Sequence record: PP554338.1
Reading direction: 5' to 3' (one strand)
DNA from: Klebsiella phage vB_KM5a1-KLB24
DNA length: 40,194 nucleotides
The position numbers and the translations under genes were made by a program. Position 1 is the stretch's first letter. Each line of letters starts with the position of its first letter. Below are positions 5,045 to 35,116 of this stretch, piece after piece. A model generated the notes under the pieces. It saw nothing but the letters and a program-made list of their open reading frames with translations, did no database searches and was not told the origin of the DNA.

Positions 5045-6085
5045 ATGATTTTAGATAATGCTTTCTATCGCCAATTACAAAGGGCGTTTCGTTTCGTGGC
5101 GGAAGATAAGCGCGAAATTCGCGCCCCGTCTTTCGCTGATAATGAGTGTAAGCGCGGCTATTGGCTTTCAGCCCGTGGCGCGATTGCTATTGTTCCACAT
5201 CAAAACATCGGCGCTTTTCTCCACTTCGAGGAAATCAACGCTAAAGCGTTCGCCGAAAAATGCCAGCGCGAAAATATTAACGTTCAGTTCGCGGAAGAAA
5301 ATTTAACGTTTGGTCATGGTCACGTTAAATTATATTCTAACCTGATTTGTTATTATGGGAATTATGCCAATTCGCAGAACCCCGCGCGCGCCCGTTATAT
5401 TTCATGCTCGAAAAGCAAGTTCGGGGAAGTGGTGGAAAATGGAATTCCGCGCGCGCTCGAATATCAGGCAATGATTATTATGGCGCTAACCCGAACGCGT
5501 GATTTTCTCTACGTGTTTCATTCAGTGCAAACGGGGCAATTTAAATTCATCGAAATTAAATACGATGAAAAATTGGCGATGGAAGTTTGGGAAACGGCAA
5601 ACGCCGGGGTCGAGTCGGTAGATATTCCGCCGCACTTGCCGGAAATTGGCGGGAAGATTCACCCTAAATGTGCGGATTGCGAATTTAGCGCCGCTTGTTT
5701 AGCGCCTGAAATCCCCGCGCCAACTTGCCGCGCTTGTCGTCATGTTGTGTTAGGGCCGAACGGTTATATTGCTTGCGGTGCGCAAAATAACTTTAACCTT
5801 AGTCCTGATATGATTTTGAACCTTCACAAATGCGAATACCATCGTTATAACGCCGGGTTAATTGCGACTTGGGCGCAACCGGAAGGGCGCACCGATGCGA
5901 ACGAATGGGTTTATTCTAATTTACTGAATGGCGGAAAATTCGTAAATGGCTCTACCACTCCCGGCGCTTATTCGTCATATCAGATGAATAACATCGAAGG
6001 GAATAACCCGGCGTCGCTGGTGGGCGACGAAACGTTAAATAAATTAATTCAAATGTTTGACGCAAAATTAGCCGATGATAAATAA
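5045..6085 (+). CDS. PD-(D/E)XK-family nuclease with a 4-Cys Fe-S cluster (Cas4/AddB-like; DUF2800-type)
   Basis: 346 aa. It has an N-terminal Cys (ADNECKRGYW) plus CADCEFSAAC (C-x2-C-x5-C), the iron-staple signature of Cas4/AddB nucleases. It lies in the recombination module. Confidence 0.5.
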   Translation: MILDNAFYRQLQRAFRFVAEDKREIRAPSFADNECKRGYWLSARGAIAIVPHQNIGAFLHFEEINAKAFAEKCQRENINVQFAEENLTFGHGHVKLYSNLICYYGNYANSQNPARARYISCSKSKFGEVVENGIPRALEYQAMIIMALTRTRDFLYVFHSVQTGQFKFIEIKYDEKLAMEVWETANAGVESVDIPPHLPEIGGKIHPKCADCEFSAACLAPEIPAPTCRACRHVVLGPNGYIACGAQNNFNLSPDMILNLHKCEYHRYNAGLIATWAQPEGRTDANEWVYSNLLNGGKFVNGSTTPGAYSSYQMNNIEGNNPASLVGDETLNKLIQMFDAKLADDK

Positions 6086-7697
6086 TAACTTAATCGAATA
6101 TCGTGATTATCAGGGCGAAGCAATTAACGATACCCTGAACTATTGGGAAAAGGAAGATTGGCGGTCGCCGATTATCGAAGCGCCTACGGGGTCGGGCAAA
6201 TCGATAATTGTCGGCGGCGTTGTTGTGGAGGCAATGCGACGTTACCAAACCAAATTACGGTCGGTTATTATTGTCCCGTCTAAAGAATTATGCATTCAGA
6301 ACGCGGAAAAACTCGAAAAGCTGGCCCCGCCCGGTGTGTCAGTTGACGTTTATTCGGCATCGGTAGGGCGCAAAAACGCCCTTGCGGATATCGTTTGTTG
6401 TACCATCGGGAGCATTCGAAGCAAGGCCGCCGAATTCGGGCATCGCGATATTATCGGCATTGATGAATGTCACCGCGTCAGCCCGGACGGAAAGGGGGAT
6501 TATTGGGAATTCATAGACGGGATGATAACGTTAAAGCGTAAGTTTCGTTTATTCGGATTAACCGCAACCCCTTATCGCGGTAATGGCGTTTGGATTACCG
6601 ACGGCAAGCGCCCCGCATTTCATGGTTTTAGCCATAGAATTAAAATTATGGAAATGCTGGAGCGTGGTTTTTTATCTCCGCTGGTAATTCCGGGCGAAGA
6701 AATCAGGACGCGCATTAATACCGATGGAGTAGAGAAATCAGGATATGATTTTAAAATCGACCAGTTGGCGGCGCGAACCGCTAAATACTTAGTAACGGCG
6801 GCAGATGAAGCGATTCATCTTGCGGCGAACCGGAATAAATGGATTGCGTTTCTTCCAGACGTTCAGACCGCTAACGACTTCGCAAAAATCCTTAATGCGA
6901 AAGGCGTTCCGTCAGGCGTGGTAACTGGTGAAACCCCGGACGCCGAAAGGGAATATTTAATTGAACAGTTTAAGCGCGGCAACCTGCAATGTTTAATTAC
7001 TGTTTTGGCTTTATCAACCGGGTTTGACGTTCCAGATATTGATTGTATTTTGTGGTTGCGCTCCACGCATTCGCCCGTTTTATATGTTCAGGGTGCGGGG
7101 CGTGGTTTGCGAATTGCCCCCGGAAAGGCTAATTGCTTATGGCTGGATTTTACCGATACGACGGAACGTTTAGGGCCGCTCGATAAAATTACGGGCCGGA
7201 AGAAAAAGCGCAAGGCTAACGACCACGCGCCGTGCGTTATTTGTGACGATTGCGGCTCTAGCATTATGCCAGCAAGCGCGCTTTATTGCCCGGTATGTGG
7301 TGCGACGTTACGCGAAATTGAGGATTTGGAAGCGCGCTACGCTTCGAACGCCGAAATATTCGCGGGCCTGAACCCGACGCCAATTTTCCCGGTTAGTCAT
7401 ATATCGGTTATGGAGCAAAAGACCACAAACGGCAAATCGTTTTTGATGGTTTATTTTTATAACCAAATGGTCGAGCTATGCCGCGAACCGATATTTTTTA
7501 GCGGGATTGCTATTTCCCAACAATGCGTTAATTTCTGGATTGCGCTAACTGGCGACCATATGGGGCAATACAATAATTACACCGCTTGCGCCAGATACTT
7601 AAAAGAGTATATCGCGTTTGATAAGCGAATGGGGGTCGGCTCGATTCGCGTTGACCGAACTAAAAAATATCCGAAATTACTGGACATTATCCGATGA
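6075..7697 (+). CDS. Superfamily-2 DEAH-box DNA helicase with a C-terminal zinc ribbon
   Basis: Helicase motifs: I APTGSGKS, II GIDECHR, III LTATP, VI QGAGRGLR. The C-terminus has CVICDDCG...CPVCG. Confidence 0.8.
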   Translation: MINNNLIEYRDYQGEAINDTLNYWEKEDWRSPIIEAPTGSGKSIIVGGVVVEAMRRYQTKLRSVIIVPSKELCIQNAEKLEKLAPPGVSVDVYSASVGRKNALADIVCCTIGSIRSKAAEFGHRDIIGIDECHRVSPDGKGDYWEFIDGMITLKRKFRLFGLTATPYRGNGVWITDGKRPAFHGFSHRIKIMEMLERGFLSPLVIPGEEIRTRINTDGVEKSGYDFKIDQLAARTAKYLVTAADEAIHLAANRNKWIAFLPDVQTANDFAKILNAKGVPSGVVTGETPDAEREYLIEQFKRGNLQCLITVLALSTGFDVPDIDCILWLRSTHSPVLYVQGAGRGLRIAPGKANCLWLDFTDTTERLGPLDKITGRKKKRKANDHAPCVICDDCGSSIMPASALYCPVCGATLREIEDLEARYASNAEIFAGLNPTPIFPVSHISVMEQKTTNGKSFLMVYFYNQMVELCREPIFFSGIAISQQCVNFWIALTGDHMGQYNNYTACARYLKEYIAFDKRMGVGSIRVDRTKKYPKLLDIIR

Positions 7698-8017
7698 ATG
7701 TAAACGGTAATAATATGATAATCGACGGGCCGGAATATCTTCACGCGGCCTTAAACGACATGAAGGCATTGAGGCATATTCTGGAGGGGAACCCATTCAC
7801 GAAAGATTACACCAGCGTAAAACGCGAATTAGATTGTCGGATTAAATTTTATGAAGGCTTAGTATCTAATTTGCGCTGTATTAATTGTTTTCACTATCGA
7901 AGCGAAACCGCGTCGCCGATGGGCGCTATGTGTAACGTGAACGGGCTTTTCCCGGAAAACATCAAACCGGGCGAATACTTTTGCGGCGCTTATGTGTTTG
8001 ACGACGTTCCGTTTTAA
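7694..8017 (+). CDS. Hypothetical Cys-rich small protein
   Basis: 107 aa. Its ATG overlaps the helicase stop. C-terminal CINCFH...C...C pattern. Confidence 0.45.
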   Translation: MNVNGNNMIIDGPEYLHAALNDMKALRHILEGNPFTKDYTSVKRELDCRIKFYEGLVSNLRCINCFHYRSETASPMGAMCNVNGLFPENIKPGEYFCGAYVFDDVPF

Positions 8018-8058
8018 CTGTAAAATCGTAATTCCGGTTAACTAAAAGAGGCTACAAA

Positions 8059-9610: not shown

Positions 9611-9640
9611 AAAAGGGGCCGCGTTTGGCCCCTTCTCTTT
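9609..9640. terminator. Bidirectional intrinsic terminator (A6-GGGGCC-GCGTTT-GGCCCC-TTCTCTTTT) between the convergent operons
   Basis: A perfect 6-bp GC stem flanked by an A-run and a T-run. It lies exactly between the end of the + operon (9610) and the end of the - block (9640). Confidence 0.7.
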
Positions 9641-10085: not shown

Positions 10086-10273
10086 TTGGTCGAATCCTTA
10101 AAATCACGTTTACGCATATGGCGAACAATTTTGTTCATCTTGCGCGCGCTGGCGTAGTTGCCGGAAAGTAAATAACCACGACGGAAAGTTGCGGCTATAC
10201 GCTTCCAGCGGCGAACGTCTTTATTATCATTTTTGCAAAGGCCCATTGAGTGACATTTACGAACTAATTTCAT
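10082..10273 (-). CDS. Hypothetical very basic small protein
   Basis: 63 aa, Lys/Arg-rich. A sigma70-like promoter and a motif copy precede it. Confidence 0.4.
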   Translation of the reverse strand: MKLVRKCHSMGLCKNDNKDVRRWKRIAATFRRGYLLSGNYASARKMNKIVRHMRKRDFKDSTK

Positions 10274-10317
10274 TTCTTTAAATCCTCATTCGGGGAAGTG
10301 GTGGAACCGATAAATTC

Positions 10318-14287: not shown

Positions 14288-14307
14288 CCCCCGAACGAAT
14301 CCGGGGG
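14288..14307 (-). terminator. Hairpin CCCCCG-N8-CGGGGG + T5 (minus sense), fused to a motif copy, 20 nt upstream of the J ATG
   Basis: In minus sense: TTCCACCACTCCCCCGGATTCGTTCGGGGGTTTTT, then a Shine-Dalgarno sequence and the ATG. Confidence 0.45.
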
Positions 14308-14317
14308 AGTGGTGGAA
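14303..14317. repeat. Dispersed 15-nt motif copy GGGGGAGTGGTGGAA (intergenic, ~40 nt upstream of J)
   Basis: Exact copy. Others are listed under findings. Confidence 0.7.
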
Positions 14318-18773: not shown

Positions 18774-19533
18774 TTGTCAAAGTCTCCGATTTGATTCGGT
18801 CAATTACCATTTGATGAATTGCCGGGGGAGTGGTGGAATTGCGCCAGATTGAATTACAAAATTTAATCCAAAACTTATCTATAATATCAATCTTTGATTT
18901 GCGATTGGTGATATGGTGAATAAATTCGTTATCACCTAAGTAAATCCCGCAATGGTTCGGAACGCTCGACGCGTAATTAAATAACATCGTGTCGCCCGGT
19001 TGCAGGTCTGCAAGTTCCACGCGACGGAATCCTTCACGCTCGATATTGTCCAGATAAAGATTTTGGCCTTCATCCCACCAATCCGAATCGCGTTTATAGT
19101 TATCCATGCGAACGCCGCACATTGCATAGTAATCCTGCATAATCGAATAACAGTCAGTTACCCCAACAACGTAATCCCGGCCCCGGAATTTTGGAATTGG
19201 CGCGAACGCTTCCGCCGTCCAGTTTGGTTTAATCAACAACCAATCGCCGTCGCGGTTGTCATATTGCGCTATTCGGTCAAATGCCGACAAGTGCGGGAGG
19301 TGATACGCGTCCGGGTGAGAATGGACGACATAAACGATTTCACCCATAGAGCGGGCGGCGTCAGTGTCTAACATATCAATTTCGAATCCGTCGCTACGGT
19401 CGGCGGCGATATTCTGACATTCATAAAATTGATAGTCTCCACCACTCCGGCAAATAATATAACCGCAAATTTCGAATAGCGGCGACATTTTCGCGCGGGC
19501 GATAGCGGTTGCAATAGCGGCTTTTAATTCCAT
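18766..19533 (-). CDS. K: Lambda gpK-like tail tip assembly protein (JAB/MPN + NlpC/P60 domains)
   Basis: JAMM motif VVHSHPD...SAFD. NlpC/P60 Cys (VTDCYS) and His (HCGIYLG...HH). It overlaps gene I by 8 nt, as in lambda. Confidence 0.8.
   Translation of the reverse strand: MELKAAIATAIARAKMSPLFEICGYIICRSGGDYQFYECQNIAADRSDGFEIDMLDTDAARSMGEIVYVVHSHPDAYHLPHLSAFDRIAQYDNRDGDWLLIKPNWTAEAFAPIPKFRGRDYVVGVTDCYSIMQDYYAMCGVRMDNYKRDSDWWDEGQNLYLDNIEREGFRRVELADLQPGDTMLFNYASSVPNHCGIYLGDNEFIHHITNRKSKIDIIDKFWIKFCNSIWRNSTTPPAIHQMVIDRIKSETLTNG
18824..18838. repeat. Motif copy inside the 3' end of the gpK-like gene, ~50 nt upstream of the gpI-like start
   Basis: Exact copy; in K it encodes STTPP. Confidence 0.65.
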
Positions 19534-21641: not shown

Positions 21642-23903
21642 TCAACTACCGTTTGCGCGGTCACGGTCAGATAATTTTTTATCTACAATCGCTTCGGTCA
21701 TGCTTTTTAGCGTTTCCAAATCGTCGGCGGAAATCCCGCTCCCCGTGATATGGTTAATTTGGGTAAATTCGGAAGTTCCACCACTCCCGCCACCGCCGCC
21801 CATTGCTTTTTGCAAATTAGCGTTACTGGTGATTTGCCCGCCTGAACCCGGAACCGTGAATAACTCCGGCCCCTTTTCCCCTACAAGGTAGGTTTTACCG
21901 CCGTACACTGGCCCGCCTTTTTCACGCGCCCCGGCTAACTCGACAACGCCTTGCGCCGCAATTAACGCCGCTTGCGCATAACCCCACGCGGTAATGCTTT
22001 CCGCCGCCGCCATTTGCGCCGCTGGCCCTCCGGGGGTATTCGCCGCCGCCATTACCCCGGCAAGGTTCGCCGCCATAATTGCTTGACCAACTAACATCGC
22101 CTTTTGTGCCAGTGTCGCAACTAACCACGCGGCGGAACCCTGTTCGGCGCTCGATTTCACCACGTCGGCGAATCCGCTTGCTAAATCAATTCCGCGATTA
22201 ACGGTATCGTTATATTTCTGCATTCCCTCCGCTTGTTTGGCGAACATATCGTTACGACCGATATTTTCCGTTTTTTGCGTTAGTGCGTTTCGGCGCTGTT
22301 CATAGTCAATCTGAATCGCCAATAATTGCTCCTGAAAACGCTGTTCGGAAACTAATTTTTGGTCATGTTCATAATTGAGTCTTTCGACGGCTGAACTACG
22401 GTTCATTTCTAAAACGCTGGCGTCGCGGTCAGCCTGAATTTTATGTAATCTTTCCTGATAGTCAGCCTCGGAAAGTAACATTTGTTCATGCTGTGAATTA
22501 AGGCGTTCCATGCGGTTTTGATATACTTGCTCGATATCAGCGCCGTATTTTTGCGTATTAAGCATTTCAACGCCGCGTTGATATTCGCGTTCGCTAACCA
22601 ATCCCTTTTTATGGAATTCGTCTAACTTTTTAAGTTGAATTGCGTAGTTGCGGTCTGCCTTGTCTTGCTGAGTCGCTATATTCGCATCAAGTTGCGTTAA
22701 CCATGCGGCGGCTTGCTCTTTTTGCGCTGCAAACTGTTTAGCCTTTTGCGCGCTATCGTCTTTCGCTGGTTTATTCCATCCACCATCCGGGGCGGCTTTT
22801 TTCGTGATGTTGTCAACGTCGGATTGCATATCCGCAACAACGCCTTTCAAATGGTCTAGACCGTCATATGAAATAACCGGGTCAACGCCCAATTGAATCA
22901 TTCCGTTTCGGATTAAATCGCCGTTATTGCCACCCGTCAGGAATCCGCGAATTGCTTCGCTGAAACCGTCTTTAGTGAAGAATTTAGCAAATGAAGTATT
23001 TTCCCAATCTCCATTCATTAAATCTAACAATTCGTTAATTTCGTCCACGGTAGGGGCCAGAATATTAACTTTCCAGTCGTTGAAATTCGTTTTCAGGGTT
23101 TCAATCTTTCTATCCCATTCCGCGTATTTTGCCGCAACGTCAGACGTTACCCCGACATGTTGATTTGAAATGGCGTTTAACGCGTCCATTTCATTACCAT
23201 ATTGTTGCAGCACTCCGACCAAATGCGAACCGTCCGACGCTAACGTTTCCATCATGTTCGTAATTTCGGCCTGATTCTTTCCGGCGTTTTTCAATTCAAA
23301 GAATGTATGAATTAACGCCTTAATGCCGCCGTTCGTTTGGTTCAAATATTGGTTGTAGTCTTTCATGGAAAGGCCCAACGCTTTCATATCGTCGGCAGGG
23401 CCGGAACCATCGCGGAACGCGTCGCCCAAATGGTCCAATACGTCTTTGTTAATATCGCCGAATTTATCAATCTCCATTCCGGTAGCGATAAACTCTTTTT
23501 TCATTTGCTGCAAATATTCAATACTGGTTCCGGTAGCCGTCGCGACTTGCCGCATTTCACGAACATAATCGGCGTTTGCATTAATCGCCATTACCACCGC
23601 ACCAGCAACGGCAGTTAGCCCACCAGCAATTAAACCGAATGCGGCAAGGTAACGGGCCGCGCCAGCCTCCGCTCCCGCCATAGTGGTTTTAACGCGGTTG
23701 ATTAAATCGTTGATATCGCCAAATGACGAAACGGAAGAATTGCGGAGGCTGTTAAAAACGTCCTCCAGATTTTCCACCCCGTCAGCCATTCCGCGCGTTG
23801 AGTCGTTAATTTTTTTCTTTGCCCGTTGCGTGTTTTCGGCAAGGTTATTAACGACGTTCGACATATTATCGCGCGCGGTTAAAAGCGTATTAATAATCGG
23901 CAT
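21642..23903 (-). CDS. H: Tail tape measure protein
   Basis: 753 aa with long coiled-coil-like segments and a Gly-rich C-terminus. It sits after the G/G-T chaperones and before the M/L/K/I/J-like genes. Confidence 0.8.
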   Translation of the reverse strand: MPIINTLLTARDNMSNVVNNLAENTQRAKKKINDSTRGMADGVENLEDVFNSLRNSSVSSFGDINDLINRVKTTMAGAEAGAARYLAAFGLIAGGLTAVAGAVVMAINANADYVREMRQVATATGTSIEYLQQMKKEFIATGMEIDKFGDINKDVLDHLGDAFRDGSGPADDMKALGLSMKDYNQYLNQTNGGIKALIHTFFELKNAGKNQAEITNMMETLASDGSHLVGVLQQYGNEMDALNAISNQHVGVTSDVAAKYAEWDRKIETLKTNFNDWKVNILAPTVDEINELLDLMNGDWENTSFAKFFTKDGFSEAIRGFLTGGNNGDLIRNGMIQLGVDPVISYDGLDHLKGVVADMQSDVDNITKKAAPDGGWNKPAKDDSAQKAKQFAAQKEQAAAWLTQLDANIATQQDKADRNYAIQLKKLDEFHKKGLVSEREYQRGVEMLNTQKYGADIEQVYQNRMERLNSQHEQMLLSEADYQERLHKIQADRDASVLEMNRSSAVERLNYEHDQKLVSEQRFQEQLLAIQIDYEQRRNALTQKTENIGRNDMFAKQAEGMQKYNDTVNRGIDLASGFADVVKSSAEQGSAAWLVATLAQKAMLVGQAIMAANLAGVMAAANTPGGPAAQMAAAESITAWGYAQAALIAAQGVVELAGAREKGGPVYGGKTYLVGEKGPELFTVPGSGGQITSNANLQKAMGGGGGSGGTSEFTQINHITGSGISADDLETLKSMTEAIVDKKLSDRDRANGS

Positions 23904-24559: not shown

Positions 24560-24574
24560 GGGGGAGTGGTGGAA
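24560..24574. repeat. Motif copy (intergenic, upstream of the terminator and G)
   Basis: Exact GGGGGAGTGGTGGAA. Confidence 0.7.
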
Positions 24575-25315: not shown

Positions 25316-25690
25316 TTAAAGGTGAAATACTAGGGCGATTTCATACCCTACTAATTGCATATTTAACGTTAAATCCGGGTCGGCGTCGCCAGCGTCAGCC
25401 AACGTAATAAGTTGCACATCTGGAAGTTTCCCCGGCCCGATTAAGTTTAACATGCGCGCTTTGATTGTGTCCATCAATAGAACATCCTCGCAAATGATGC
25501 CGAATCTAACGGTTGCTTGCCTCGCATACGGCAAGCCTTCTAAATCCATTTGCTCGAATTCATCGGAAACCAGATACGCAAGCGCGGGCGTCTTTGGTTC
25601 ATCTTCCGGGATAAATCCATAATAAATGCGGTCGCCTAATTCTGGAATTATCTTCGGAATATAATCAACGATGATTTCACGAATTCCCAT
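25316..25690 (-). CDS. Tail completion / tail terminator-like protein
   Basis: 124-aa acidic protein immediately upstream of the major tail gene. Confidence 0.4.
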   Translation of the reverse strand: MGIREIIVDYIPKIIPELGDRIYYGFIPEDEPKTPALAYLVSDEFEQMDLEGLPYARQATVRFGIICEDVLLMDTIKARMLNLIGPGKLPDVQLITLADAGDADPDLTLNMQLVGYEIALVFHL

Positions 25691-26216
25691 CGGTCGCCCC
25701 CTTTTTAATTAATTTTTGGGTAATATTGCGGCGGGTAATTTCCACCACTTCGCCGCGCTCTTTCGTCACCAGCCTTTCAATAATCGGCCTTCCCGCAAAT
25801 CCGGGATGCATTAATTTACGCTGGTGGCTATTTAAAATTAATCGTCCTTTCTTCGCTTTCTTAATTGTTGCGCCTTTCGCCGTGTAGTGCGGCTTTGTTC
25901 CCCCTTCCAGCCAACGGGCTTTAAATGTATCTGCCATATATTCGGGCGTTCCGCGCGGGCCTGATTTCTTCGAAAAGTAAATTCGGTACGCCGCACCGCC
26001 GCGCGCCTCGTCTTTATTCGATACACCCATTTTCACGCCTTCGCGCGAAAGCCTACCCGTGCGAATTCCCCAACCGCGCCCGACTTCATTTTTAATTTGA
26101 CCATAAATAAAAATTGCAGCGGGGCGCAAGGCTTGCCGCAATTCGCGTTTATCAAGATTATACTCTTTCAGGAGTTTAACCAGTTCGTCAATATTAAAAA
26201 CGTTGTCATTATTCAT
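25677..26216 (-). CDS. HK97 gp10-like head-tail (neck) component
   Basis: 179-aa basic protein within the connector gene set. Confidence 0.4.
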   Translation of the reverse strand: MNNDNVFNIDELVKLLKEYNLDKRELRQALRPAAIFIYGQIKNEVGRGWGIRTGRLSREGVKMGVSNKDEARGGAAYRIYFSKKSGPRGTPEYMADTFKARWLEGGTKPHYTAKGATIKKAKKGRLILNSHQRKLMHPGFAGRPIIERLVTKERGEVVEITRRNITQKLIKKGATDGNS

Positions 26217-26547: not shown

Positions 26548-26548
26548 G

Positions 26549-26970: not shown

Positions 26971-28185
26971 TTAAGCGTTAGCGCCTACTGCCAGTTGAAC
27001 GAATGCGGCCTTATCTTCTAACACGCAATCGAAGCGCTCGAATGCGAGGAACCCGACTTGCCCCGTTTCGGCGTAGAGTTCGTCAAGACGTTTAACGGTC
27101 ATACCGGAAACGCGGCGAACGATAAGCGCGTTCCAGTCGCCGTAAACGATGGAGCCTTTAAACGCCGTTCCGTCGGTTTTGAATTCCGGGAATTCGTTAT
27201 CGACAACAACGGGTTCGCCCAAAATAGTATCAGGCTTGTCAGTGACCAGCGAACGAATATAAATCGGTTCGCCTTGCGTATTTTTGAATTTACGGATTTT
27301 CGCCAGCGTCTTATCATGCATACCGAACGCACGTTTCGGGCTAACGCGATAAGCCGCGTCGATACCGTGGAACAGGTCAACCAGCGTTTCCCATGAGAAA
27401 TCCGCTAATTTCGCGATTGCCACTTCTTTGGTAATTGAAGGCAACAAGCCTTTTGGCTGGCCCACGCCAGTACCAGTAAGAATATAACCGTTCATCCCAC
27501 GGTCAATACGGGTACGCGCGATATTGGTAATATAGGCGACCATATCAATTTCGGAATCCTGCAAAAGTTCCTCCGAAACCAGAATAACTTTTGAGGAAAT
27601 TTTAAACGCGCCCAATTGCACGTTAGTAAACCCGGTATCGCTTTTCCCGTGGTTAGCGCCTTCACCAACGATAACGCCTTTTACAGCGCCTTCCGTCGAT
27701 ACGGCCCAATTCATCGGGTTCCCTTTTCCGGTTTGCAGGGTATTAGCCTGATTCAGCGCCGCGCCGTAGGAAATTTTTTCCTGAACGACTTTAGCAAGGG
27801 TTTCCGTATCGATGGTGTAACCGCCTTCCGCTGGCGTGGTGGACATAGCGCGCAATTCGGAAATAGTGGTTTTTTCTTCCGTGGTCATACCGTTGAAACC
27901 ACGGCAAAGGTAGGCGTTCATCACGGCGTGACGCGCTTCAACCTTATATTTCTTGCCTTCCGGGTCGGCGGCGTTTTCGTTCATCTGGCCCGTTAAAACG
28001 GCGTCAGTTGAGCGCTGTTCTTCCTCGCGAATGATAGCGTCGCGAAGCCCTTCAATTTCAGCGCTCAACGCATCGAGCGCGCTGCGCTGTTCATCGGTCG
28101 CTTTGTTCACGCCGATTTCTTTTGACAGCTTGCCGTAAGCGGAACGCTTTTCTTTCAGAGCCGCCAGCATTTCTTTATAAGTCAT
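26971..28185 (-). CDS. Major capsid protein, HK97 fold (with an N-terminal delta/scaffold-like domain)
   Basis: 404 aa. The N-terminal ~100 aa are coiled-coil-like; the rest matches the Phage_capsid (HK97 gp5) family pattern (…TGTGVGQPKGLL…). Confidence 0.85.
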   Translation of the reverse strand: MTYKEMLAALKEKRSAYGKLSKEIGVNKATDEQRSALDALSAEIEGLRDAIIREEEQRSTDAVLTGQMNENAADPEGKKYKVEARHAVMNAYLCRGFNGMTTEEKTTISELRAMSTTPAEGGYTIDTETLAKVVQEKISYGAALNQANTLQTGKGNPMNWAVSTEGAVKGVIVGEGANHGKSDTGFTNVQLGAFKISSKVILVSEELLQDSEIDMVAYITNIARTRIDRGMNGYILTGTGVGQPKGLLPSITKEVAIAKLADFSWETLVDLFHGIDAAYRVSPKRAFGMHDKTLAKIRKFKNTQGEPIYIRSLVTDKPDTILGEPVVVDNEFPEFKTDGTAFKGSIVYGDWNALIVRRVSGMTVKRLDELYAETGQVGFLAFERFDCVLEDKAAFVQLAVGANA

Positions 28186-28196
28186 GGTGTATATCC

Positions 28197-28841
28197 TTAG
28201 ATTGAATTCAATAGGAAGTTTTCGCGAATTTGCGCGCTCTTTGCGTCAATTTCGGTTTCAATTTTACGTGTATTTTCAGCGGAACGCAACGCCGAATTTG
28301 CCACATTATACGCCGGGAAAGTGACCGGACTAACATCAATCACCGATTCGATTTTGGTAATCGAACGGTAAACGGTATCACTTGCGGCATCGTATCGCCA
28401 TTCGTCGCCGTCCTCCGCGACAACAAAACGGAATGAGGATTTATCAACATCACCCCGGCGCATAACTTCAATTACCGTATCACGGATAAATTGAGTATCG
28501 GGGGGAGTGGTGGAATAAAATAATCCGCGTTCGGTAATTTCCAGTTTCAGAGTATTACCGGACATTGAACCTAAAACGATATCGTCGTTATGGTTCCATA
28601 CGGATTTGCACATAGAGAAATCTGCGCCGTCAAATGCCCCGGCCCGGATAGTCTCGACGAAATACCCCAAATTATCAGAAGGGGAGTTAAACACCGCCGC
28701 GTAACCTTCGATTTTCGGAAGTGGGTCATTTTCGCCACCAGCCGAAATCATCGCGGCCCGTAGTTCGTCAGTGGTGTTAAAGGTTCGAACCTCAACACCG
28801 CCCGATTTCAACTTTTCTTGTACTTCCTGAATTCGGCTCAT
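28197..28841 (-). CDS. Prohead protease (HK97 family, S78/U35)
   Basis: The N-terminal EGYAAVFNSPSDNLGYFVETIRAGAF block is typical, and the gene lies between portal and capsid. A motif copy lies within the coding sequence. Confidence 0.75.
   Translation of the reverse strand: MSRIQEVQEKLKSGGVEVRTFNTTDELRAAMISAGGENDPLPKIEGYAAVFNSPSDNLGYFVETIRAGAFDGADFSMCKSVWNHNDDIVLGSMSGNTLKLEITERGLFYSTTPPDTQFIRDTVIEVMRRGDVDKSSFRFVVAEDGDEWRYDAASDTVYRSITKIESVIDVSPVTFPAYNVANSALRSAENTRKIETEIDAKSAQIRENFLLNSI
28500..28515. repeat. Motif copy inside the prohead protease gene
   Basis: GGGGGGAGTGGTGGAA; encodes YSTTPPD in the same frame as the K copy. Confidence 0.65.
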
Positions 28842-30238: not shown

Positions 30239-32107
30239 TTAGAGCGTTCCCCACTCGTCGGGGTCGGCCTCCGGGATTATAACATCTGTAATATACCTAA
30301 CGATACGGGAAATCGCGTTAAATGTCGCGGCTGGCCCATCAATTTTGTTTTCCAACGACGATTTATCGGGAAAGATGTTATTGTTCTTATCCGGTTTAAC
30401 CTGAACGTTCGCCAACATCCAATCGAATACTAAATTATGGTCGTGATGGAATTTGCCAGCAAAAACTAATTCCTGAAATTTTACCATCGCTTCATTTAGG
30501 TTTTTCACGGTTTGAGTAACTTCGACAATCTGATAACCGCGACCATTCATCGCAAGCGCGAATTGCGTTGCTTGCCACGGGTCGTAAGCAAGTTCTTTGA
30601 AATATTCTTTATCTTCCTCAATCCATGCGGATAAATCTTCCTCAATTTCTTTATGGTCGATTACGTCGCCTTCGGTTAATTTCAGCAATCCGCGTTCGGC
30701 GAATCCTTTATATAACTCCGCTTGCGATTTTGAGCATGATTTTAAACGGCCTTCCGGCAACCAGAATTTGCAGCGTAAAACGGCATGGTCTTTTGCTGGC
30801 CCGTCCATTACGTAATAAACTTTTACCGCTGCGCATAAGTCGATTTTATTCGACAAATCCACGCCAACCCAATAAGGGATTTTTAACGGTTTCGCGTTTT
30901 TCAGTTGCGACCATCTAATCATATCCATCCACGCCGACGCACCAGACACAAAGATATTACAATGTTTGGTCATAAAGTTGGCGCGCGCGTCCACCGCTTG
31001 TTTTGCTTTTTCGGCCTGTTCGCGCATTGTCTTTAATGCCTTACTAGCGCCTAACCCCGGATTCGCTTTATACCACTGACTTTCATCATATTCATTATCG
31101 TTATCCTCTATACTTTCAAATTCAGTATCGAGCGTATAAAAAAGGAAGAAAAACGAATCGCCAACATTTTTGGAAGCGAGGCGCAAAATCATTTTGCCGT
31201 AATCGCGCAATTCGGCGCAAATACCATTAAGGATAACGCCAGCGGTTGAAATTGCCAAAATGAGCGGTTGACGGCGTGAACCCGTCGCGGTTTCCAGAAC
31301 GTCGAAAAGGTCGCGTGATTTCATCGCGTGGATTTCGTCGAGAATTCCGCAATGGATGTTCAGCCCGTCGAGGCTATCCGCTTCCGATGCAAGCGGAACG
31401 AATTTCGAATAACTCTCAACATGGAAAATTGACAGTTTCGCGGTTTTAATGATTTCCTTCAATTCGGGCGATTTCTCGACCATTTGTTTTGCATCGTCAA
31501 AAACGATTCGGGCTTGGTCGCGTTTCGTTGCAGCGGAATAAACTTCCGAACCGCCTTCGCCGTCAAAGCACATCATATATAAACCGATTCCCGTTGCTAG
31601 GAACGATTTAGCGTTTTTACGCGCAACCAGAATTAACGCGGTAGAGAATCGGCGAACGTATACATCGTGATATGTGTAAGAATCGGTTTCCTCGTCGTAT
31701 TCTTCATCCTGTATAATTTCGCCTGTTTCGTCGTCGCGTAATGGCTTAATAAAGCCGAACAGGTTAACGAGAATAAAGATATGCCAATCCATCAAATCAA
31801 CGGGGTCGCCCGCTTTAACTTTAACCGACGCTTTAACGTGAACCAAATAAGTTTCGAAAAAACGCAATACATGTTCGGCGCGTTCAATGGAAAATTCTAA
31901 ATCGTCGTCCGGGTCGTCACAACGAGCCAAATCATTTAGAAATCTTTCGCAAGCCGAAATTATCCATTGCGCGGCTTTTCGTTTTCGCTCCACCACTTCG
32001 GTTGCATATTGAACAGCATCGCCAACCGTCGCCGTTCCATTTGGCACTAATCGGCAAAACGTAAATTGTTCGGCTGGTGGGTTTTTATCAATATCTAATT
32101 TAATCAT
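30239..32107 (-). CDS. terL: Terminase large subunit (Terminase_1 family)
   Basis: 622 aa. Deviant Walker A VARKNAKSF (HK97-type PRKNGKT) and a C-terminal nuclease region. Confidence 0.85.
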   Translation of the reverse strand: MIKLDIDKNPPAEQFTFCRLVPNGTATVGDAVQYATEVVERKRKAAQWIISACERFLNDLARCDDPDDDLEFSIERAEHVLRFFETYLVHVKASVKVKAGDPVDLMDWHIFILVNLFGFIKPLRDDETGEIIQDEEYDEETDSYTYHDVYVRRFSTALILVARKNAKSFLATGIGLYMMCFDGEGGSEVYSAATKRDQARIVFDDAKQMVEKSPELKEIIKTAKLSIFHVESYSKFVPLASEADSLDGLNIHCGILDEIHAMKSRDLFDVLETATGSRRQPLILAISTAGVILNGICAELRDYGKMILRLASKNVGDSFFFLFYTLDTEFESIEDNDNEYDESQWYKANPGLGASKALKTMREQAEKAKQAVDARANFMTKHCNIFVSGASAWMDMIRWSQLKNAKPLKIPYWVGVDLSNKIDLCAAVKVYYVMDGPAKDHAVLRCKFWLPEGRLKSCSKSQAELYKGFAERGLLKLTEGDVIDHKEIEEDLSAWIEEDKEYFKELAYDPWQATQFALAMNGRGYQIVEVTQTVKNLNEAMVKFQELVFAGKFHHDHNLVFDWMLANVQVKPDKNNNIFPDKSSLENKIDGPAATFNAISRIVRYITDVIIPEADPDEWGTL

Positions 32108-32126
32108 TATTTAAATCCCTGAAATG

Positions 32127-32147
32127 CGGGGGGAGTGGTGGAACCCC
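32127..32147. repeat. Motif copy in the loop of a GGGGG/CCCCC hairpin, 20 nt upstream of the TerL ATG
   Basis: GGGGGGAGTGGTGGAACCCCC. Confidence 0.7.
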
Positions 32148-32648: not shown

Positions 32649-32718
32649 TTTTAAACCTCCTATATGATAAAGGCCCATCATAACGCGACGGGCCTTATTT
32701 ATAAAGCGGTTGTGTGTG

Positions 32719-33138
32719 TCAGCCGCCGAAAATCCAGTGGGCCGCAATAGTGATGATTGCGACCACCAGCAAAATGGAGCAAATAATTAAATCGCGGGCG
32801 GTAATGGTCGGCCCGTCGTCGGTTTCCGATACTTCGGGAATCCGTTCAATACGGCCCGTTTTGCTTTTTTGGATGTACCACGGCGAACCCGGAATTTTTA
32901 TAAATTCACTGTTACCAATATCTATTCTATGTGAACAATATCGACACTCGATTTTAATCAATACGCCGTTTTGACGATAAACGCGATAATCATGCTCCAT
33001 ATTAATGACGGGGCACAATTCAACGGCTGGCGGCGTAAACACTGGTTCGGGAATTCCATTATTAAGAATCTCGAATTCTTTAACGCCCGGTACTGGCTCC
33101 CCATCCATGAATAACTTACACCCTTTTAATTCAGTCAT
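32719..33138 (-). CDS. Hypothetical protein with a C-terminal transmembrane helix
   Basis: 139 aa with a hydrophobic C-terminus (ICSILLVVAIITIAAHWIF). Confidence 0.4.
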   Translation of the reverse strand: MTELKGCKLFMDGEPVPGVKEFEILNNGIPEPVFTPPAVELCPVINMEHDYRVYRQNGVLIKIECRYCSHRIDIGNSEFIKIPGSPWYIQKSKTGRIERIPEVSETDDGPTITARDLIICSILLVVAIITIAAHWIFGG

Positions 33139-33151
33139 TATTAATTACCCC

Positions 33152-33349
33152 TTATTTGAATATAGCGTATACGACGTTACCAACTAACATCGCAATAGTG
33201 ATAACGGCGATAATAGCGATTAGTGCAAGCGCACCATATGGCGTGTTATCGGGGCGTTGTGGCATTGGTGCAAAGCAGTGAATACAGTAGCGGCTAATCT
33301 CGCTAGACTTCTCCCCGCACTCTTTACATTTAACGTCATGGATAATCAT
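33152..33349 (-). CDS. Small zinc-ribbon membrane protein
   Basis: 65 aa with CKECG...CIHC, then a transmembrane segment. Confidence 0.4.
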   Translation of the reverse strand: MIIHDVKCKECGEKSSEISRYCIHCFAPMPQRPDNTPYGALALIAIIAVITIAMLVGNVVYAIFK

Positions 33350-33687
33350 TCGTTGTACTCCTTAATCTCAATTACGGCGATACACTCCGACGGGGATTCG
33401 ATACCGCGAACCACATCGCACCCATCGACTGAAAGACAATTGCACATAGAACAGTAATTGCGGTTATGCCAGCAGTGCAACGCCACCGCATACCCATCAC
33501 AACGACCACCACCCCAACGGTGAGGGAACGAATACGCATCGCAACAACAAACTAACTGTTTGCCGTTATGGTATGGCGCGACGTTATTCGAATTCACAAT
33601 ATCACCTCGAAGCATTGAAAAATATTTGTCGAAATCGTGAAAAAAGTCATTTCGAGACTTGACAGGGGGAGGAATTTCGGAATTCAT
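33346..33687 (-). CDS. Cys-rich hypothetical protein (11 Cys)
   Basis: 113 aa. There is no Shine-Dalgarno sequence; the ATG sits directly after CCACCCCCACCCCCGG. Confidence 0.35.
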   Translation of the reverse strand: MNSEIPPPVKSRNDFFHDFDKYFSMLRGDIVNSNNVAPYHNGKQLVCCCDAYSFPHRWGGGRCDGYAVALHCWHNRNYCSMCNCLSVDGCDVVRGIESPSECIAVIEIKEYNE

Positions 33688-33823
33688 CCGGGGGTGGGGG
33701 TGGCTGAATCACGAATTCCCTTCCTTTCTGCTATCGTCTGCCTCCCTCTTTGTGCGCATCCGGGAAACTCACGTTCGATTTTGGAAAGTCGCGCACAAAT
33801 TGGGAATTTAACATTTTCGTTCA

Positions 33824-34168
33824 CTATTCTTTTGCGGTTTTAGCATTATGGCACGTTTCACAAAGTAATTGCAAGTTGTCTAAATCCCAAATCGCACCAC
33901 CTTGCGAAACTGGTTTTATGTGGTCAACGTGATTTCCCGGAACTAACACCCCTTTGGATTTGCAACCCTCGCATAATCCGAAAGCCTTACGAATTACGAC
34001 AATTCGAATTTTCTTCCATCGGGTAGATTGATAAAAGCGGTTCGGGTTTTCAGTCTGGTATGTCTCCCACCCTTTATTTTTGTGCTTAGTGCAATAGCCA
34101 TTGTTGGCGCTGGTGGCTATTCCCGAACAGCCGTTTACGCGGCATTGTCTACCCGGTAGGCTAGGCAT
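33824..34168 (-). CDS. HNH endonuclease (terminase-associated)
   Basis: HNH motif VDHIKP...NLQLLCETCHNAKT. Its position upstream of TerS/TerL is typical of HK97-like cos packaging. Confidence 0.8.
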   Translation of the reverse strand: MPSLPGRQCRVNGCSGIATSANNGYCTKHKNKGWETYQTENPNRFYQSTRWKKIRIVVIRKAFGLCEGCKSKGVLVPGNHVDHIKPVSQGGAIWDLDNLQLLCETCHNAKTAKE

Positions 34169-34499
34169 TTTTACGGAATCCTGTTTCGTGGTCGAATCCC
34201 AAAAGGGTACATAAGCGCATTAAATGAACAACCGGAATCGCCCGTTCGTCACTGGAGCGCCATACACGAACGGTCTGTTCCTTAACATCCAGCAACGCGG
34301 CAATGTCGCGCGTCCTGATTCCCGTTTGCCTTTGGATGCGGGATAACCACGCCCGCCGCTTATGCCCCGGAATGCGATTCTTATTCAGAGTTAGCCGCGT
34401 GACTAACTCCCTTTCTGAAATAAAATAACCGCCCTCGACTTTCTTCATTTGTAAACCCCTTTTCCGTAATAGTTGATTCAAAATAAGTTTTATCAACAT
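34161..34499 (-). CDS. HTH DNA-binding protein (possible regulator or packaging-associated)
   Basis: 112 aa, basic, with a helix-turn-helix-like TRDIAALLDVKEQTVRVW. Confidence 0.45.
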   Translation of the reverse strand: MLIKLILNQLLRKRGLQMKKVEGGYFISERELVTRLTLNKNRIPGHKRRAWLSRIQRQTGIRTRDIAALLDVKEQTVRVWRSSDERAIPVVHLMRLCTLLGFDHETGFRKNA

Positions 34500-34510
34500 T
34501 ACCGGAAATA

Positions 34511-34545
34511 AAAAAGGGCGGCAAGTTTTTTACACTTTGCCGCCC
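34511..34545 (-). terminator. Strong intrinsic terminator (10-bp GGGCGGCAAG stem + T5 in minus sense) after the lysis cassette
   Basis: In minus sense: GGGCGGCAAAGTGTAAAAAACTTGCCGCCCTTTTT, directly after the Rz1 stop. Confidence 0.65.
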
Positions 34546-34581
34546 TTAGTCCGGTTGCCAATCGAGGCATTTACAACGATA

Positions 34582-34851
34582 TCACTTCGGAACAGACCAT
34601 TCAACAAGTTTCTGATAACGCGCCCAACATTCTAAATACATTCGCGAAATAATATCGATATGGGAAATTAATTCCCCGCCGTTTGCACCGTCCGGCGATT
34701 TCGGGCGGAGTGGTGGAATCGGTAAACAGTCAATTGTTATTGATTTCGGCGGGCGTCTTTCCGGCGTATTTATTGATTTGCTGCAACCCGTCATTATCAG
34801 AACAGACAATATTATAAACAGGACGTTTCTTAATTTCATTAAGTTGACCAT
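34582..34851 (-). CDS. Rz1: o-spanin (Rz1-like outer-membrane lipoprotein), embedded in the +1 frame of Rz
   Basis: Lipobox LIMTGC and a Pro-rich mature region. It overlaps the 3' part of the Rz-like gene. Confidence 0.6.
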   Translation of the reverse strand: MVNLMKLRNVLFIILSVLIMTGCSKSINTPERRPPKSITIDCLPIPPLRPKSPDGANGGELISHIDIISRMYLECWARYQKLVEWSVPK

Positions 34852-35116
34852 TTATTGTTATCCCCATTTTGGATAATTTAGATAATATTTCCGCTAATCC
34901 GTACTGAATTTCATTGTCGCGGTCGCGGTCTTGCTGCAATTTCGCCAATTTATCGGCGTTTTCTTTATTGATTTTGTCAATTTCTGCCTTGTTATCCTTC
35001 TTAATTTTCACAATTTCACGGTTCAATTCCACCACTTCCCCGCCTTTTTTGACTCCATAGACGACGGCGGAAACGCCTAAAATCGCAAATACGATACTAA
35101 TAATGATTGCTCTCAT
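34730..35116 (-). CDS. Rz: i-spanin (Rz-like)
   Basis: N-terminal transmembrane helix, then a long charged coiled-coil (KIKKDNKAEIDKINKENADKLAKLQQDRD). Confidence 0.6.
   Translation of the reverse strand: MRAIIISIVFAILGVSAVVYGVKKGGEVVELNREIVKIKKDNKAEIDKINKENADKLAKLQQDRDRDNEIQYGLAEILSKLSKMGITINGQLNEIKKRPVYNIVCSDNDGLQQINKYAGKTPAEINNN

Follow-up and report, generated by a model that had tools for sequence, protein, structure and literature searches.

Scattered along the genome of Klebsiella phage KLB24 are copies of a motif that serves an entire phage family, 'Ca. Rivulusviridae' or the Carrot-like cluster, as a cis-acting DNA signal. That it functions at the level of DNA is close to certain; most likely it is a genome-wide replication signal, with its sites perhaps being fixed sites of priming. 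The window analysed, 40,194 nucleotides (PP554338.1), is the complete KLB24 genome.

An oriented and evenly spaced motif

The motif is 16–18 bases long and consists of an invariant 10-nt core, TTCCACCACT, with a GC-rich 3′ extension of 6–8 nt, which is CCCCCG in KLB24 and TGCGCGAA or TGCCCCGA in relatives. Exact copies of the core number 14 where a first-order Markov model expects 0.02, and TTCCACCACTCCCC has 14 matches at up to two mismatches against 0.15 expected from shuffles, the largest shuffled count being 1. A recurrent motif spanning 5423–35034 had been reported in the first-pass annotation; it is real and its excess stronger than was stated, but that range was too narrow, the full set extending from 2224 to 37753 (Table 1) and including six intergenic copies that had gone unlisted (10293, 14304, 24561, 32130, 37254 and 37740). 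Eight copies lie within open reading frames and six in non-coding DNA, which makes up 7.2% of the genome yet holds 43% of the copies, a six-fold intergenic enrichment. The motif is placed wherever coding sequence permits, with intergenic space preferred.

The − strand carries ten copies, all seven perfect ones among them, and the + strand four. One strand holds some 70% of copies irrespective of the direction of transcription, those in the minor orientation numbering 3–5 per genome in the family, and five lineages preserve the major orientation within the oppositely (leftward) transcribed replication operon. Major-strand copies come every 3–5 kb, about every 4 kb, with a gap CV of 0.23–0.25 in KLB24, KLB28 and KLB29 (0.23 in KLB24 itself; P ≤ 1e-4) and, when cores with one mismatch are included, of 0.29 in Bonzee (P < 1e-4) and 0.36 in Sucellus (P = 0.004); for evenness of spacing in KLB5, P is 0.002–0.01. 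Minor-orientation copies fall on one side of the putative origin in 22 of 24 cases, a distribution that is not significant with site positions held fixed (Fisher P ~0.1).

Table 1. Copies of the motif and associated features in the KLB24 genome
Feature	Position	Strand	Context
Motif copy, perfect, major orientation	2224..2237	-	within primase-polymerase gene, sense, K-I-P-P-L-P-R
Motif copy TTCCACCACTTCCC, major orientation	5424..5437	-	Cas4-like exonuclease gene 5045..6085 (+), antisense, F-G-E-V-V-E-N
Motif copy, major orientation	10293..10306	-	intergenic; ATG at 10273 is 19 nt downstream
Motif copy, perfect, major orientation	14304..14317	-	intergenic, a tail gene on either side
Motif copy, perfect, major orientation	18825..18838	-	K-like tail gene, sense, N-S-T-T-P-P-A
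Motif copy (…CCCG), minor orientation	21776..21789	+	tape-measure gene, antisense, G-G-S-G-G-T-S
Motif copy, perfect, major orientation	24561..24574	-	intergenic, tail-tube/chaperone genes; terminator-like hairpin directly downstream
Motif copy, core exact, extension TCGC, minor orientation	25740..25753	+	gene 25677..26216, antisense, R-G-E-V-V-E-I
Motif copy, perfect, major orientation	28502..28515	-	prohead protease gene, sense, Y-S-T-T-P-P-D
Motif copy, perfect, major orientation	32130..32143	-	intergenic, terS/terL
Motif copy (…CCGC), major orientation	34705..34718	-	o-spanin (Rz1) gene, sense, P-I-P-P-L-R-P
Motif copy (…TCCC), minor orientation	35027..35040	+	i-spanin (Rz) gene, antisense, G-G-E-V-V-E-L
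Motif copy, minor orientation	37254..37267	+	one border of 545-bp non-coding AT-rich region
Motif copy, perfect, major orientation	37740..37753	-	other border of AT-rich region, then strong terminator-like hairpin
Near-variant core CTCCACCACT, one mismatch	31988..31997	+	TerL, T-E-V-V-E
Near-variant core CTCCACCACT, one mismatch	19437..19446	+	K-like gene
Putative replication origin	37216..37760	.	non-coding, 63% A+T, repeats, border motif copies inverted
Primase-polymerase fusion, 942 aa	1..2829	-	Prim-Pol and PriCT_2 domains; candidate reader of the motif

Selection on DNA and not on peptides

In KLB24 the copies within genes use four of the six reading frames, two sense and two antisense, giving IPPL twice, STTPP twice, GEVVE three times and SGGT once; across the family all six frames are used. 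Sense copies are in the primase-polymerase (where the peptide can be extended to GKIPPLPR), o-spanin, K-like tail and protease genes, and GEVVE arises from the antisense copies in the Cas4-like exonuclease, i-spanin and 25677..26216 genes. The earlier description had three frames, both orientations, two each of STTPP and IPPL, and four or five of GEVVE. Translation of the copies bears out the STTPP and IPPL pairs and both orientations stand; the frame count does not, a fourth frame being used at 21776. Exact cores account for three of the GEVVE peptides, the TerL TEVVE coming from a core with one mismatch and the GEVVEN of gene 38179..38496 from CTCGACCACT, with two.

Selection maintains the motif DNA and not the proteins that the motif crosses. 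Selection on the nucleotide sequence, DNA or RNA, had been argued from the first reading of the sequence, and four independent tests now back it. Synonymous-codon shuffles, which held all protein sequences and the genome codon usage constant, yielded 0.116 core copies in coding sequence (largest 2 in 1000 shuffles) against the 8 observed, and the copies are built of minor codons (Pro CCA 18%, Val GTG 15%, Leu CTC 6%, Thr ACT 16%, Ser TCC 18%). In KLB29, where the alignable flanks are ~69% identical, 13 of the 14 KLB24 cores are exact at the orthologous place. Further, each of the seven genomes examined from the family (hosts Klebsiella, Serratia and Dickeya) has TTCCACCACT as its commonest 10-mer, primase-polymerase identity to the KLB24 protein being 34–42%, and copy number is 10–15 in every relative examined. 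Finally, sites turn over, since orthologous genes hold the core at differing codons, frames or orientations by lineage: in gene K it encodes STT in KLB24 and KLB29; in KLB5, Rovert and Bonzee it lies 27 codons upstream and encodes FHHL, and in Sucellus it is reversed and reads EWWK. KLB29, Rovert and Sucellus share the site at 2224, which in Bonzee carries one mismatch.

In genomes of 39–47% G+C, conservation of the motif beyond its core is limited to the GC-rich stretch of 6–8 nt, which itself differs between lineages; the motif flanks are without conservation, with no −10/−35 or other conserved element at a fixed distance. Is it DNA or RNA that is selected? The first-pass annotation had left this open, but DNA is favoured because the leftward replication operon, in which the major orientation is antisense to the mRNA, still keeps that orientation.

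The AT-rich region and a candidate role in priming

From its composition and repeats the region 37216–37760 is a putative replication origin, with a palindromic TATATA block (37534–37573) and 4–5 copies of GGGGTGTAT; the 37254..37267 copy and 37741–37754 together make a perfect inverted repeat of 14 nt. All seven genomes contain an equivalent non-coding region rich in A+T, and every lineage has a motif copy at or near its border. The border copy at 37740 is common to KLB24, KLB28, KLB29 and KLB5, has one mismatch in Rovert and Bonzee, and in Sucellus is within a gene ~170 bp upstream. The inverted pair flanking the putative origin is limited to KLB24, KLB28 and KLB29, being missing in KLB5, Rovert and Bonzee.

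Tentatively, the copies may be initiation sites for the phage's own archaeo-eukaryotic-type (AEP) primase-polymerase. This fusion is the sole primase found in KLB24 and has, besides its Prim-Pol and PriCT_2 domains, a weak, below-threshold match to the putative helicase DUF3987; no other DNA polymerase is recognisable among the KLB24 proteins, and a search of the fusion against solved structures found no sequence match. The G-rich strand of a site reads 5′-[GC-rich 6–8 nt]-A-GTGGTGG-AA-3′, the core complement, AGTGGTGGAA, holding two overlapping GTGG. The primase-polymerase ORF904 of pRN1 requires a template GTG and starts its 8-nt primer immediately 5′ of it (PMC2034472), that of phage NrS-1 recognises GTGG or GTGA (TTTGGTTA) by its helix-bundle domain (PMC8718748), and the pRN1 helix bundle, PriCT-1, is homologous to PriCT-2 (PMC5862659). 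KLB24 likewise couples Prim-Pol with a PriCT helix bundle, and in support of priming GTGG stands twice on one strand of its core, with the conserved GC-rich bases on exactly the 5′ side where a primer of ~8 nt starts in those systems. Unlike the KLB24 motif, the pRN1 and NrS-1 sites are 3–8 nt and were defined in vitro.

On this model the PriCT-2 helix bundle would attach to the GTGG elements once the DNA is unwound and single-stranded, the candidate template site being 5′-CGGGGGAGTGGTGGAA-3′, and the primer would begin directly 5′ of them, so copying the GC-rich extension. Two leading strands would begin at the inverted copies flanking the iteron-bearing AT-rich region, and the evenly spaced major-strand copies would begin lagging-strand (Okazaki-type) fragments, including those on a rolling-circle tail. 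This second, rolling-circle mode has to be assumed since major-orientation copies are also present in the half of the genome that would not need them under purely bidirectional theta replication. The arrangement in KLB24, KLB28 and KLB29, inverted opposite-strand copies about an iteron-bearing AT-rich region near a plasmid/phage-type primase gene, recalls the RepB′-primed ssiA/ssiB of IncQ RSF1010. The RSF1010 signals, however, are ~40-nt hairpins confined to the origin, whereas the motif has no conserved hairpin and most of its copies are distant from the origin.

Several points weigh against priming. We know of no primase that requires so long a site (10 invariant and 6–8 semi-conserved nt), the precedents being 3–8 nt; GTG within a 10-mer is not rare by chance; and, with A as the predicted first base of the template, the primer would begin with a pyrimidine. 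On the supporting side, repeated occurrences of the motif in 537 kb of metagenomic loci are confined to those whose primase-polymerase has an identity of 42% or more, but this co-occurrence cannot be separated from that with the remaining family genes. No primase site of 16–18 nt recurring evenly at fixed places in a genome has been described before.

Other explanations

The main rival, somewhat unlikely in our estimation, is that packaged DNA is nicked at the motif, with site-specific interruptions of a single strand like those of T5, phiKMV-like phages and tf/Bruynoghevirus. A phage nuclease, for instance the encoded HNH or VRR-NUC protein, might cleave one strand on recognising the asymmetric motif, or the nicks might be unligated junctions at fixed priming sites, which is compatible with the priming explanation. 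The pattern closely resembles that in phage tf, in which a 9-mer consensus with a lineage-specific variant marks 14 nicks, their positions being conserved among relatives (PMC3517423), and a parallel is offered by Rembedalsseter, whose 13 nicks are at WACTRTGAC, a motif enriched in 61 related phages of little DNA identity (PMC11780129). Like the motif here, with its 10–15 family-wide copies varying by lineage, those of T5, phiKMV-like phages (CGACNNNNNCCTACTCCGG) and tf/Bruynoghevirus (TACTRTGMC/WACTRTGAC) are short, asymmetric and family-conserved at low DNA identity with lineage variants; they have roughly 4–14 copies per genome, inside and outside genes, and their function is not known (PMC3517423, PMC11780129). 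Short reads alone gave no assembly of KLB24 or KLB28, for both of which MinION data were produced (PMC11845039), and the Bonzee record has four N bases, one of them in a motif copy. Both hints are weak: the assembly of KLB29 and KLB5 was normal, and the probability that one or more of four N bases would fall in a motif copy by chance is ~1.5–2%. Moreover, the three known nicked groups all have one-strand nicks, whereas the KLB24 copies are split ~70/30; where opposite-strand copies are merely 30–35 bp apart, as in Bonzee and Sucellus, nicking at both risks a double-strand break. The distribution of known nick motifs is uneven and shows no enrichment outside coding sequence (12% vs ~11%), in contrast to the even major-strand spacing and intergenic enrichment of the KLB24 motif, which is also longer.

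It is unlikely that the copies are double-stranded sites for a sequence-specific phage protein that organises or regulates the genome, whether as stoperators (repressor sites blocking elongation), for loading a packaging or condensing protein, or for ratcheting DNA during entry. An asymmetric 16–18 bp would suit a protein that binds as a monomer through a helix-turn-helix or winged helix, the genome encodes small helix-turn-helix proteins (e.g. a 95-aa HTH_23/CII-like protein adjoining HNH), and the copies are scattered and intergenic-enriched. Mycobacteriophage L5 has ~24–30 asymmetric 13-bp stoperators, and in cluster A generally such sites (those of L5 gp71 included) are dispersed, asymmetric, 13–16 bp, in tens of copies and often in short intergenic gaps. 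However, their orientation tracks transcription and the phages are temperate, whereas the motif's orientation is constant across the leftward operon and no integrase or immunity module is seen in the KLB24 annotation. Nor is there an element at a fixed distance, and duplex binding alone leaves the strand bias and one-strand even spacing unexplained.

Distinctly improbable is a Chi-like polar signal taming a helicase-nuclease, either host RecBCD or the phage Cas4-like exonuclease with a DEAD-box helicase, and thereby shielding linear or rolling-circle DNA and promoting recombination. Signals of the Chi type are rich in G, over-represented, ~70–75% strand-skewed, in any reading frame and dense across the genome. 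The G-rich strand AGTGGTGG has its final six bases in common with enterobacterial Chi, GCTGGTGG, and a Sak4-like protein, a DUF669 single-strand binding protein, the Cas4-like exonuclease and a helicase are all encoded; with Chi, KOPS and the uptake sequences USS/DUS the motif shares over-representation of an oriented word in all frames, recurrent peptides, strand skew and even spread. But the motif is not host Chi, matching at 6 of 8 positions and being conserved over 10 or more nt. Canonical Chi sites number 18–23 in KLB24, KLB28 and KLB29 (both orientations; 22 in KLB24) and 0–2 in KLB5 and the Serratia and Dickeya relatives; Chi and the motif vary independently, since the latter stays at 10–15 copies in all. 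Chi spacing is less even (CV 0.45–0.7), a phage-encoded reader of a Chi-type signal is not known, and, unlike these host words, the motif is specific to a phage family, its hosts not being known for uptake-sequence-dependent transformation.

Action in RNA, as a C-rich Rho-loading site, antitermination element or processing site in rightward transcripts, is very improbable. Nine of the 14 copies are sense to local genes, the transcript would be C-rich and G-poor, and three intergenic copies are immediately upstream of terminator hairpins, the CCCCCG of the 14304 copy forming the 5′ arm of one that resembles an intrinsic terminator. The other five are antisense to local mRNA, though, and in the leftward operon of five lineages orientation tracks the DNA strand; the unconserved flanks argue against any larger RNA structure and an Rfam search gave no match. 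In KLB5 and Bonzee the copies come after terminators, not before, so the association looks like common use of scarce intergenic space. Chance, or a commonly derived peptide module inserted into several proteins, which the recurring pentapeptides might suggest, is already refuted by the copy number, the six non-coding copies, the frames used and the synonymous shuffles, the residues around the motif being unrelated between proteins and the differing codons, frames and orientations of the core in orthologous genes ruling out a shared module.

Recurrent peptides and the DNA word beneath them

KLB24, a siphophage placed in the proposed family ‘Ca. Rivulusviridae’, has a genome of about 40 kb, and the window of 40,194 bp is taken to be all of it. 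Within this genome the 14-mer TTCCACCACTCCCC is matched at 14 places with up to two mismatches where 0.15 are expected, and the 10-nt core, TTCCACCACT, is present in 14 exact copies against an expectation of 0.02. The recurrent-peptide motif that the first-pass annotation had picked out as GEVVE, STTPP and IPPL is therefore real, though the frame used in the tape measure gene and the copies outside genes had been overlooked. Eight copies lie in ORFs, four of them sense (KIPPLPR in the primase-polymerase, PIPPLRP in the o-spanin, NSTTPPA in the K-like gene and YSTTPPD in the protease) and four antisense (FGEVVEN in the Cas4-like exonuclease, RGEVVEI in gene 25677..26216, GGEVVEL in the i-spanin and GGSGGTS in the tape measure protein). 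The other six are intergenic, in a genome whose non-coding share is just 7.2%. TEVVE in TerL comes from a core with one mismatch, and GEVVEN in 38179..38496 from one with two. At up to two mismatches the whole window holds 58 core matches versus 21 expected, which suggests many decayed or weak copies besides the 14 exact ones.

Klebsiella phage vB_KM5a1-KLB28 is 97% identical to KLB24 over 99% of a 25-kb query, in reverse orientation, and the published intergenomic similarity of the two is 96.4% (Table 1, PMC11845039). The family also takes in the Carrot-like Serratia phages and Dickeya phage Sucellus (PMC9119093). Seven genomes were compared, with G+C running from 39% to 47% and primase-polymerases 34–42% identical to the window protein, and in all seven the core is the commonest 10-mer (exact copies: KLB24, KLB28 and KLB29, 14 each; KLB5, 12; Rovert, 10; Bonzee, 15; Sucellus, 10).

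Is it the peptide or the nucleotide word that is being kept? The proposal made from the sequence at the outset, that selection acts at the nucleotide level, is borne out by four concordant results, of which the family-wide prevalence of the core is one. Synonymous-codon shuffles that held proteins and codon usage fixed gave 0.116 in-ORF cores, the largest number being 2 in 1000 shuffles, against the eight observed. At orthologous places in KLB29, 13 of the 14 KLB24 cores are exact and the alignable flanks are about 69% identical. Finally, the position of the core within orthologous genes varies by lineage: in the K gene it is read in the STT frame in KLB24 and KLB29, in the FHHL frame 27 codons upstream in KLB5, Rovert and Bonzee, and reversed, as EWWK, in Sucellus, with like shifts in the Cas4-like exonuclease, the protease and gene 8. 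Chance and a shared peptide module are excluded by the shuffles and by the shifting of sites between lineages. On this evidence the peptides are by-products, and individual sites come and go while the neighbourhood retains a copy. Minor codons build the copies (CCA 18%, GTG 15%, CTC 6%, ACT 16%, TCC 18%), and in any engineering or recoding of these Klebsiella and Serratia phages synonymous changes should spare them.

Anatomy, orientation and spacing of the site

Alignment of 74 sites, with 40 nt examined on either side, gives an invariant 10-nt core with a GC-rich, lineage-specific stretch 3' to it (CCCCCG in KLB24 and KLB29, TGCGCGAA in KLB5, TGCCCCGA in Bonzee), with no conserved flanks beyond these within the 40 nt. 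On its G-rich strand the site reads 5'-(GC-rich 6–8 nt)-A-GTGGTGG-AA-3', written out as 5'-CGGGGGAGTGGTGGAA-3' for the KLB24 type and 5'-TTCGCGCAAGTGGTGGAA-3' for the KLB5 type. It contains two overlapping GTGG, at positions 2–5 and 5–8 of the core complement AGTGGTGGAA, which is invariant in the family. Between KLB24 and KLB28, some 3% diverged, the 14-mers differ just by C/T flips at motif position 11, at three of the 14 sites, the remaining 182 aligned motif positions being identical; position 11 looks either freely Y or unusually mutable.

Ten of the window's copies are on the − strand and four on the +, and all seven perfect copies are on the −. The major-strand copies (window − strand, KLB28 top strand) are very evenly spaced, with gaps of 2.6–5.7 kb in KLB24 and a coefficient of variation (CV) of 0.23 in KLB24 and KLB28 and 0.25 in KLB29 (P≤1e-4 by comparison with 20,000 random circular placements). 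The corresponding values are P=0.002 for KLB5 and P 0.02–0.05 for Rovert; when one-mismatch cores are counted as well, the 13 sites in Bonzee give a CV of 0.29 (P<1e-4) and the 8 in Sucellus a CV of 0.36 (P=0.004). Along the map, KLB28 and Bonzee show a similar succession of orientations. Within the leftward replication operon the copies keep the major orientation and so run antisense to the genes in KLB24/28, KLB29, KLB5, Bonzee and Rovert, which argues for a process that reads a DNA strand and against a role at the RNA level or coupled to transcription. Minor-strand copies fall in the half-genome to one side of the putative origin in 22 of 24 cases across six genomes, a one-sidedness that is not significant with site positions fixed (P ~0.1) and is a hint at most. 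Inverted convergent pairs occur in Bonzee and Sucellus (see table).

Coordinates of features in KLB24 (the window) and related genomes
Feature	Genome	Coordinates	Strand	Remark
C/T flip site	KLB24; KLB28 (L001)	2224; 30256		motif position 11
C/T flip site	KLB24; KLB28 (L001)	5424; 27056		motif position 11
C/T flip site	KLB24; KLB28 (L001)	24561; 8121		motif position 11
Probable replication origin	KLB24	37216-37760		545 bp, non-coding, 63% A+T
Palindromic TATATA block	KLB24	37534-37573
GGGGTGTAT repeats (4-5)	KLB24	37308, 37320, 37469, about 37591; 37601		copy at 37601 inverted
DUF669 gene	KLB24	3848-4993		short tandem repeats, periods 8-18
DUF669 region	KLB29 (L002)	27744-28746		CTGCTGGT x10, all same strand
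Inverted convergent motif pair	Bonzee (L124)	1051-1090		30-35 bp start to start; small gene between HNH and terS
Inverted convergent motif pair	Sucellus (L126)	837-881		30-35 bp start to start; small gene adjoining lysis genes
N base in motif copy	Bonzee (L124)	31126		TTCCNCCACT
Canonical Chi, examples	KLB24	3510, 6016, 8904	+
Canonical Chi, examples	KLB24	723, 4651, 9243	−

A primase-polymerase as candidate reader

The gene order of KLB24 was taken from the KLB28 annotation together with the ORF list. Its 942-aa primase-polymerase is a fusion of Prim-Pol (Pfam E=7e-28) and PriCT_2 (E=1e-7), both above their cut-offs, with a weak DUF3987-like region below its own. The other replication genes specify a Sak4-like protein, a DUF669 single-strand binding protein, the Cas4-like exonuclease, a DEAD/ResIII helicase, a 3'-5' exonuclease related to the PolB exonuclease domain, a VRR-NUC nuclease and an HNH endonuclease; neither a DnaG-type primase nor a further DNA polymerase is recognisable. 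Sequence matches to the primase-polymerase were absent from the PDB, and relatives were absent from a single-protein IMG/VR search and an alignment-based GTDB genome search; a word-indexed search returned three homologues. The DUF669 protein, whose gene is repetitive, is 381 aa long in KLB24 versus 309 aa in KLB28.

A non-coding, AT-rich region with a palindromic block and short repeats is the probable replication origin, and all seven genomes have an AT-rich equivalent. In the relatives G/C tracts, such as GGGGAGGGGG, replace the GGGGTGTAT repeats, and a TAAGTTGTTGA element is common to the regions of KLB24, KLB5 and Bonzee. In KLB24 the region is bordered by two motif copies that form a perfect 14-nt inverted pair. 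One border copy is in the same place in KLB24/28/29 and KLB5, has one mismatch in Rovert and Bonzee, and in Sucellus sits inside a gene about 170 bp upstream; its inverted partner is confined to KLB24/28/29. The putative origin accounts for two of the window's 14 copies; the other 12 lie elsewhere.

The primase of plasmid pRN1 requires a template GTG, which it leaves uncopied, and begins its 8-nt primer directly 5' (PMC2034472). The primase-polymerase of phage NrS-1 uses GTGG or GTGA, recognised by a helix-bundle domain (PMC8718748), and the pRN1 helix bundle is PriCT-1, homologous to PriCT-2 (PMC5862659). Like these systems, KLB24 encodes a primase-polymerase with a PriCT domain and has GTGG on the template strand, though it is not unusual for a 10-mer to contain a GTG by chance. 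The GC-rich 6–8 nt, which make up the rest of the conserved bases, are on the side 5' of the GTGG element; this would fit a primer that starts there and leaves the element uncopied, but does not prove it. From resemblance and geometry we tentatively favour the reading that the motif copies are fixed initiation sites of the phage's own primase-polymerase, while granting that it may well prove wrong. The origin-flanking inverted pair would start the two leading strands, and lagging-strand fragments some 4 kb long would begin at the major-strand copies, also on a rolling-circle tail. What points this way is the two-part architecture, with its GC-rich stretch on the side that would template a primer, together with the bias towards one strand, the regular spacing, the copy found at or close to the origin border and the finding of no other primase. 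The site would be far longer than any primase site known to us, and the presence of major-strand copies to either side of the origin would call for a second replication mode. The ssi sites of IncQ plasmids offer a partial likeness in that an inverted motif pair flanks the putative origin in KLB24/28/29; ssi, however, is a conserved hairpin of about 40 nt, on opposite strands and at the origin only, and the motif has neither conserved flanks nor a hairpin.

More tentatively still, the family may hard-wire its DNA-synthesis starts with a 16–18-nt single-stranded signal placed every 3–5 kb on the lagging-strand template and at origin borders, selection for which would impose the rare codons and recurrent peptides; in this proposal the signal combines a GTGGTGG anchor with a GC-rich stretch that codes for the primer. 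Were this so, Okazaki-type fragments would have fixed, genetically encoded ends, and the enigmatic site-specific nicks of other phages could be unsealed junctions. Does a primase-polymerase have long fixed initiation sites, and are phage nick sites priming sites?

Other readings and the reach of the motif

That the copies are instead nick sites is possible, if rather doubtful. The motif shares with the nick motifs of T5, phiKMV-like and tf-like phages an asymmetric family-wide consensus, present there in several to about 14 copies (here 10–15 exact cores per genome), and its family-wide signature is like that of tf and Rembedalsseter (PMC3517423; PMC11780129). The motifs of those two phages, however, occupy a single strand without exception, are unevenly distributed and show no enrichment outside genes, whereas here the minor strand carries four copies in the window and 3–5 in every relative, and opposite-strand copies come as close as 30–35 bp. 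A weak hint in favour is that one of the four N bases of the Bonzee sequence falls within a motif copy; the chance of at least one doing so is about 1.5–2%, and a nick, a modified base or coincidence could account for it. The nick and priming readings are not exclusive, since nicks could be unsealed junctions at priming sites.

That the copies are sites for a double-stranded-DNA-binding protein seems unlikely. Stoperators of the L5 type differ from the motif in having an orientation tied to transcription, which is not so for the copies in the leftward operon of five lineages.

A Chi-like signal is less likely again. The motif is over-represented, strand-skewed and found in any reading frame, as Chi-type signals are, but its strand AGTGGTGG agrees with the host Chi GCTGGTGG at only 6 of 8 positions, and canonical Chi numbers 0–2 in KLB5, Rovert, Bonzee and Sucellus, where motif copies are just as many. 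Canonical Chi is itself abundant in the window, with 22 sites (9 on +, 13 on −) versus 0.4 expected and a largest value of 2 in 100 simulations; KLB28 has 23 and KLB29 18. Spacing of the Chi sites is somewhat even (CV 0.45–0.6), and their distribution among the genomes suggests lineage-specific selection for RecBCD protection.

An RNA element is highly improbable given the orientation kept in the leftward operon, and the window has no Rfam matches. A promoter role was rejected, −10 and −35 elements being absent at a fixed distance and promoter and terminator consensus scans no richer than shuffles; DnaA box, sigma-54, KOPS and 16S complementarity, judged by eye, were poor matches.

Chi, KOPS, uptake sequences and phage nick sites each exposed a machine that reads DNA directionally. 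We class the motif, its function putative, with such dispersed oriented genome signals, whose statistical signature it shares in a phage family recently proposed. We know of no described class that unites family-wide conservation, a lineage-specific extension, a roughly 70/30 strand bias blind to transcription, even spacing and intragenic turnover.

In 537 kb of metagenomic loci with related primases recurrence of the core is confined to the three in which the primase-polymerase is at least 42% identical, with one chance match elsewhere; two IMG/VR relatives also have the core. An IMG/VR scan for the 14-mer gave single chance matches only, besides three copies in locus L112, which were set aside as an unrelated Thr/Pro-rich tandem-repeat gene. 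Full-text literature search for the motif returned unrelated primer sequences only, and it is absent from the searchable papers on KLB24/28/29, the Carrot-like Serratia phages and BUCT805. The motif is not general to primase-polymerase phages, for in Vibrio phage J2, a distant one of these, the repeat is an unrelated palindrome around GTGTCGACGTCGA, in 8 copies per strand. Other repeated words were seen, TTGCGGCTGTTGA in the IMG/VR relative L128 (5–6 copies on one strand) and ACCTGCAAGGTGC in locus L142 (10 copies on one strand).
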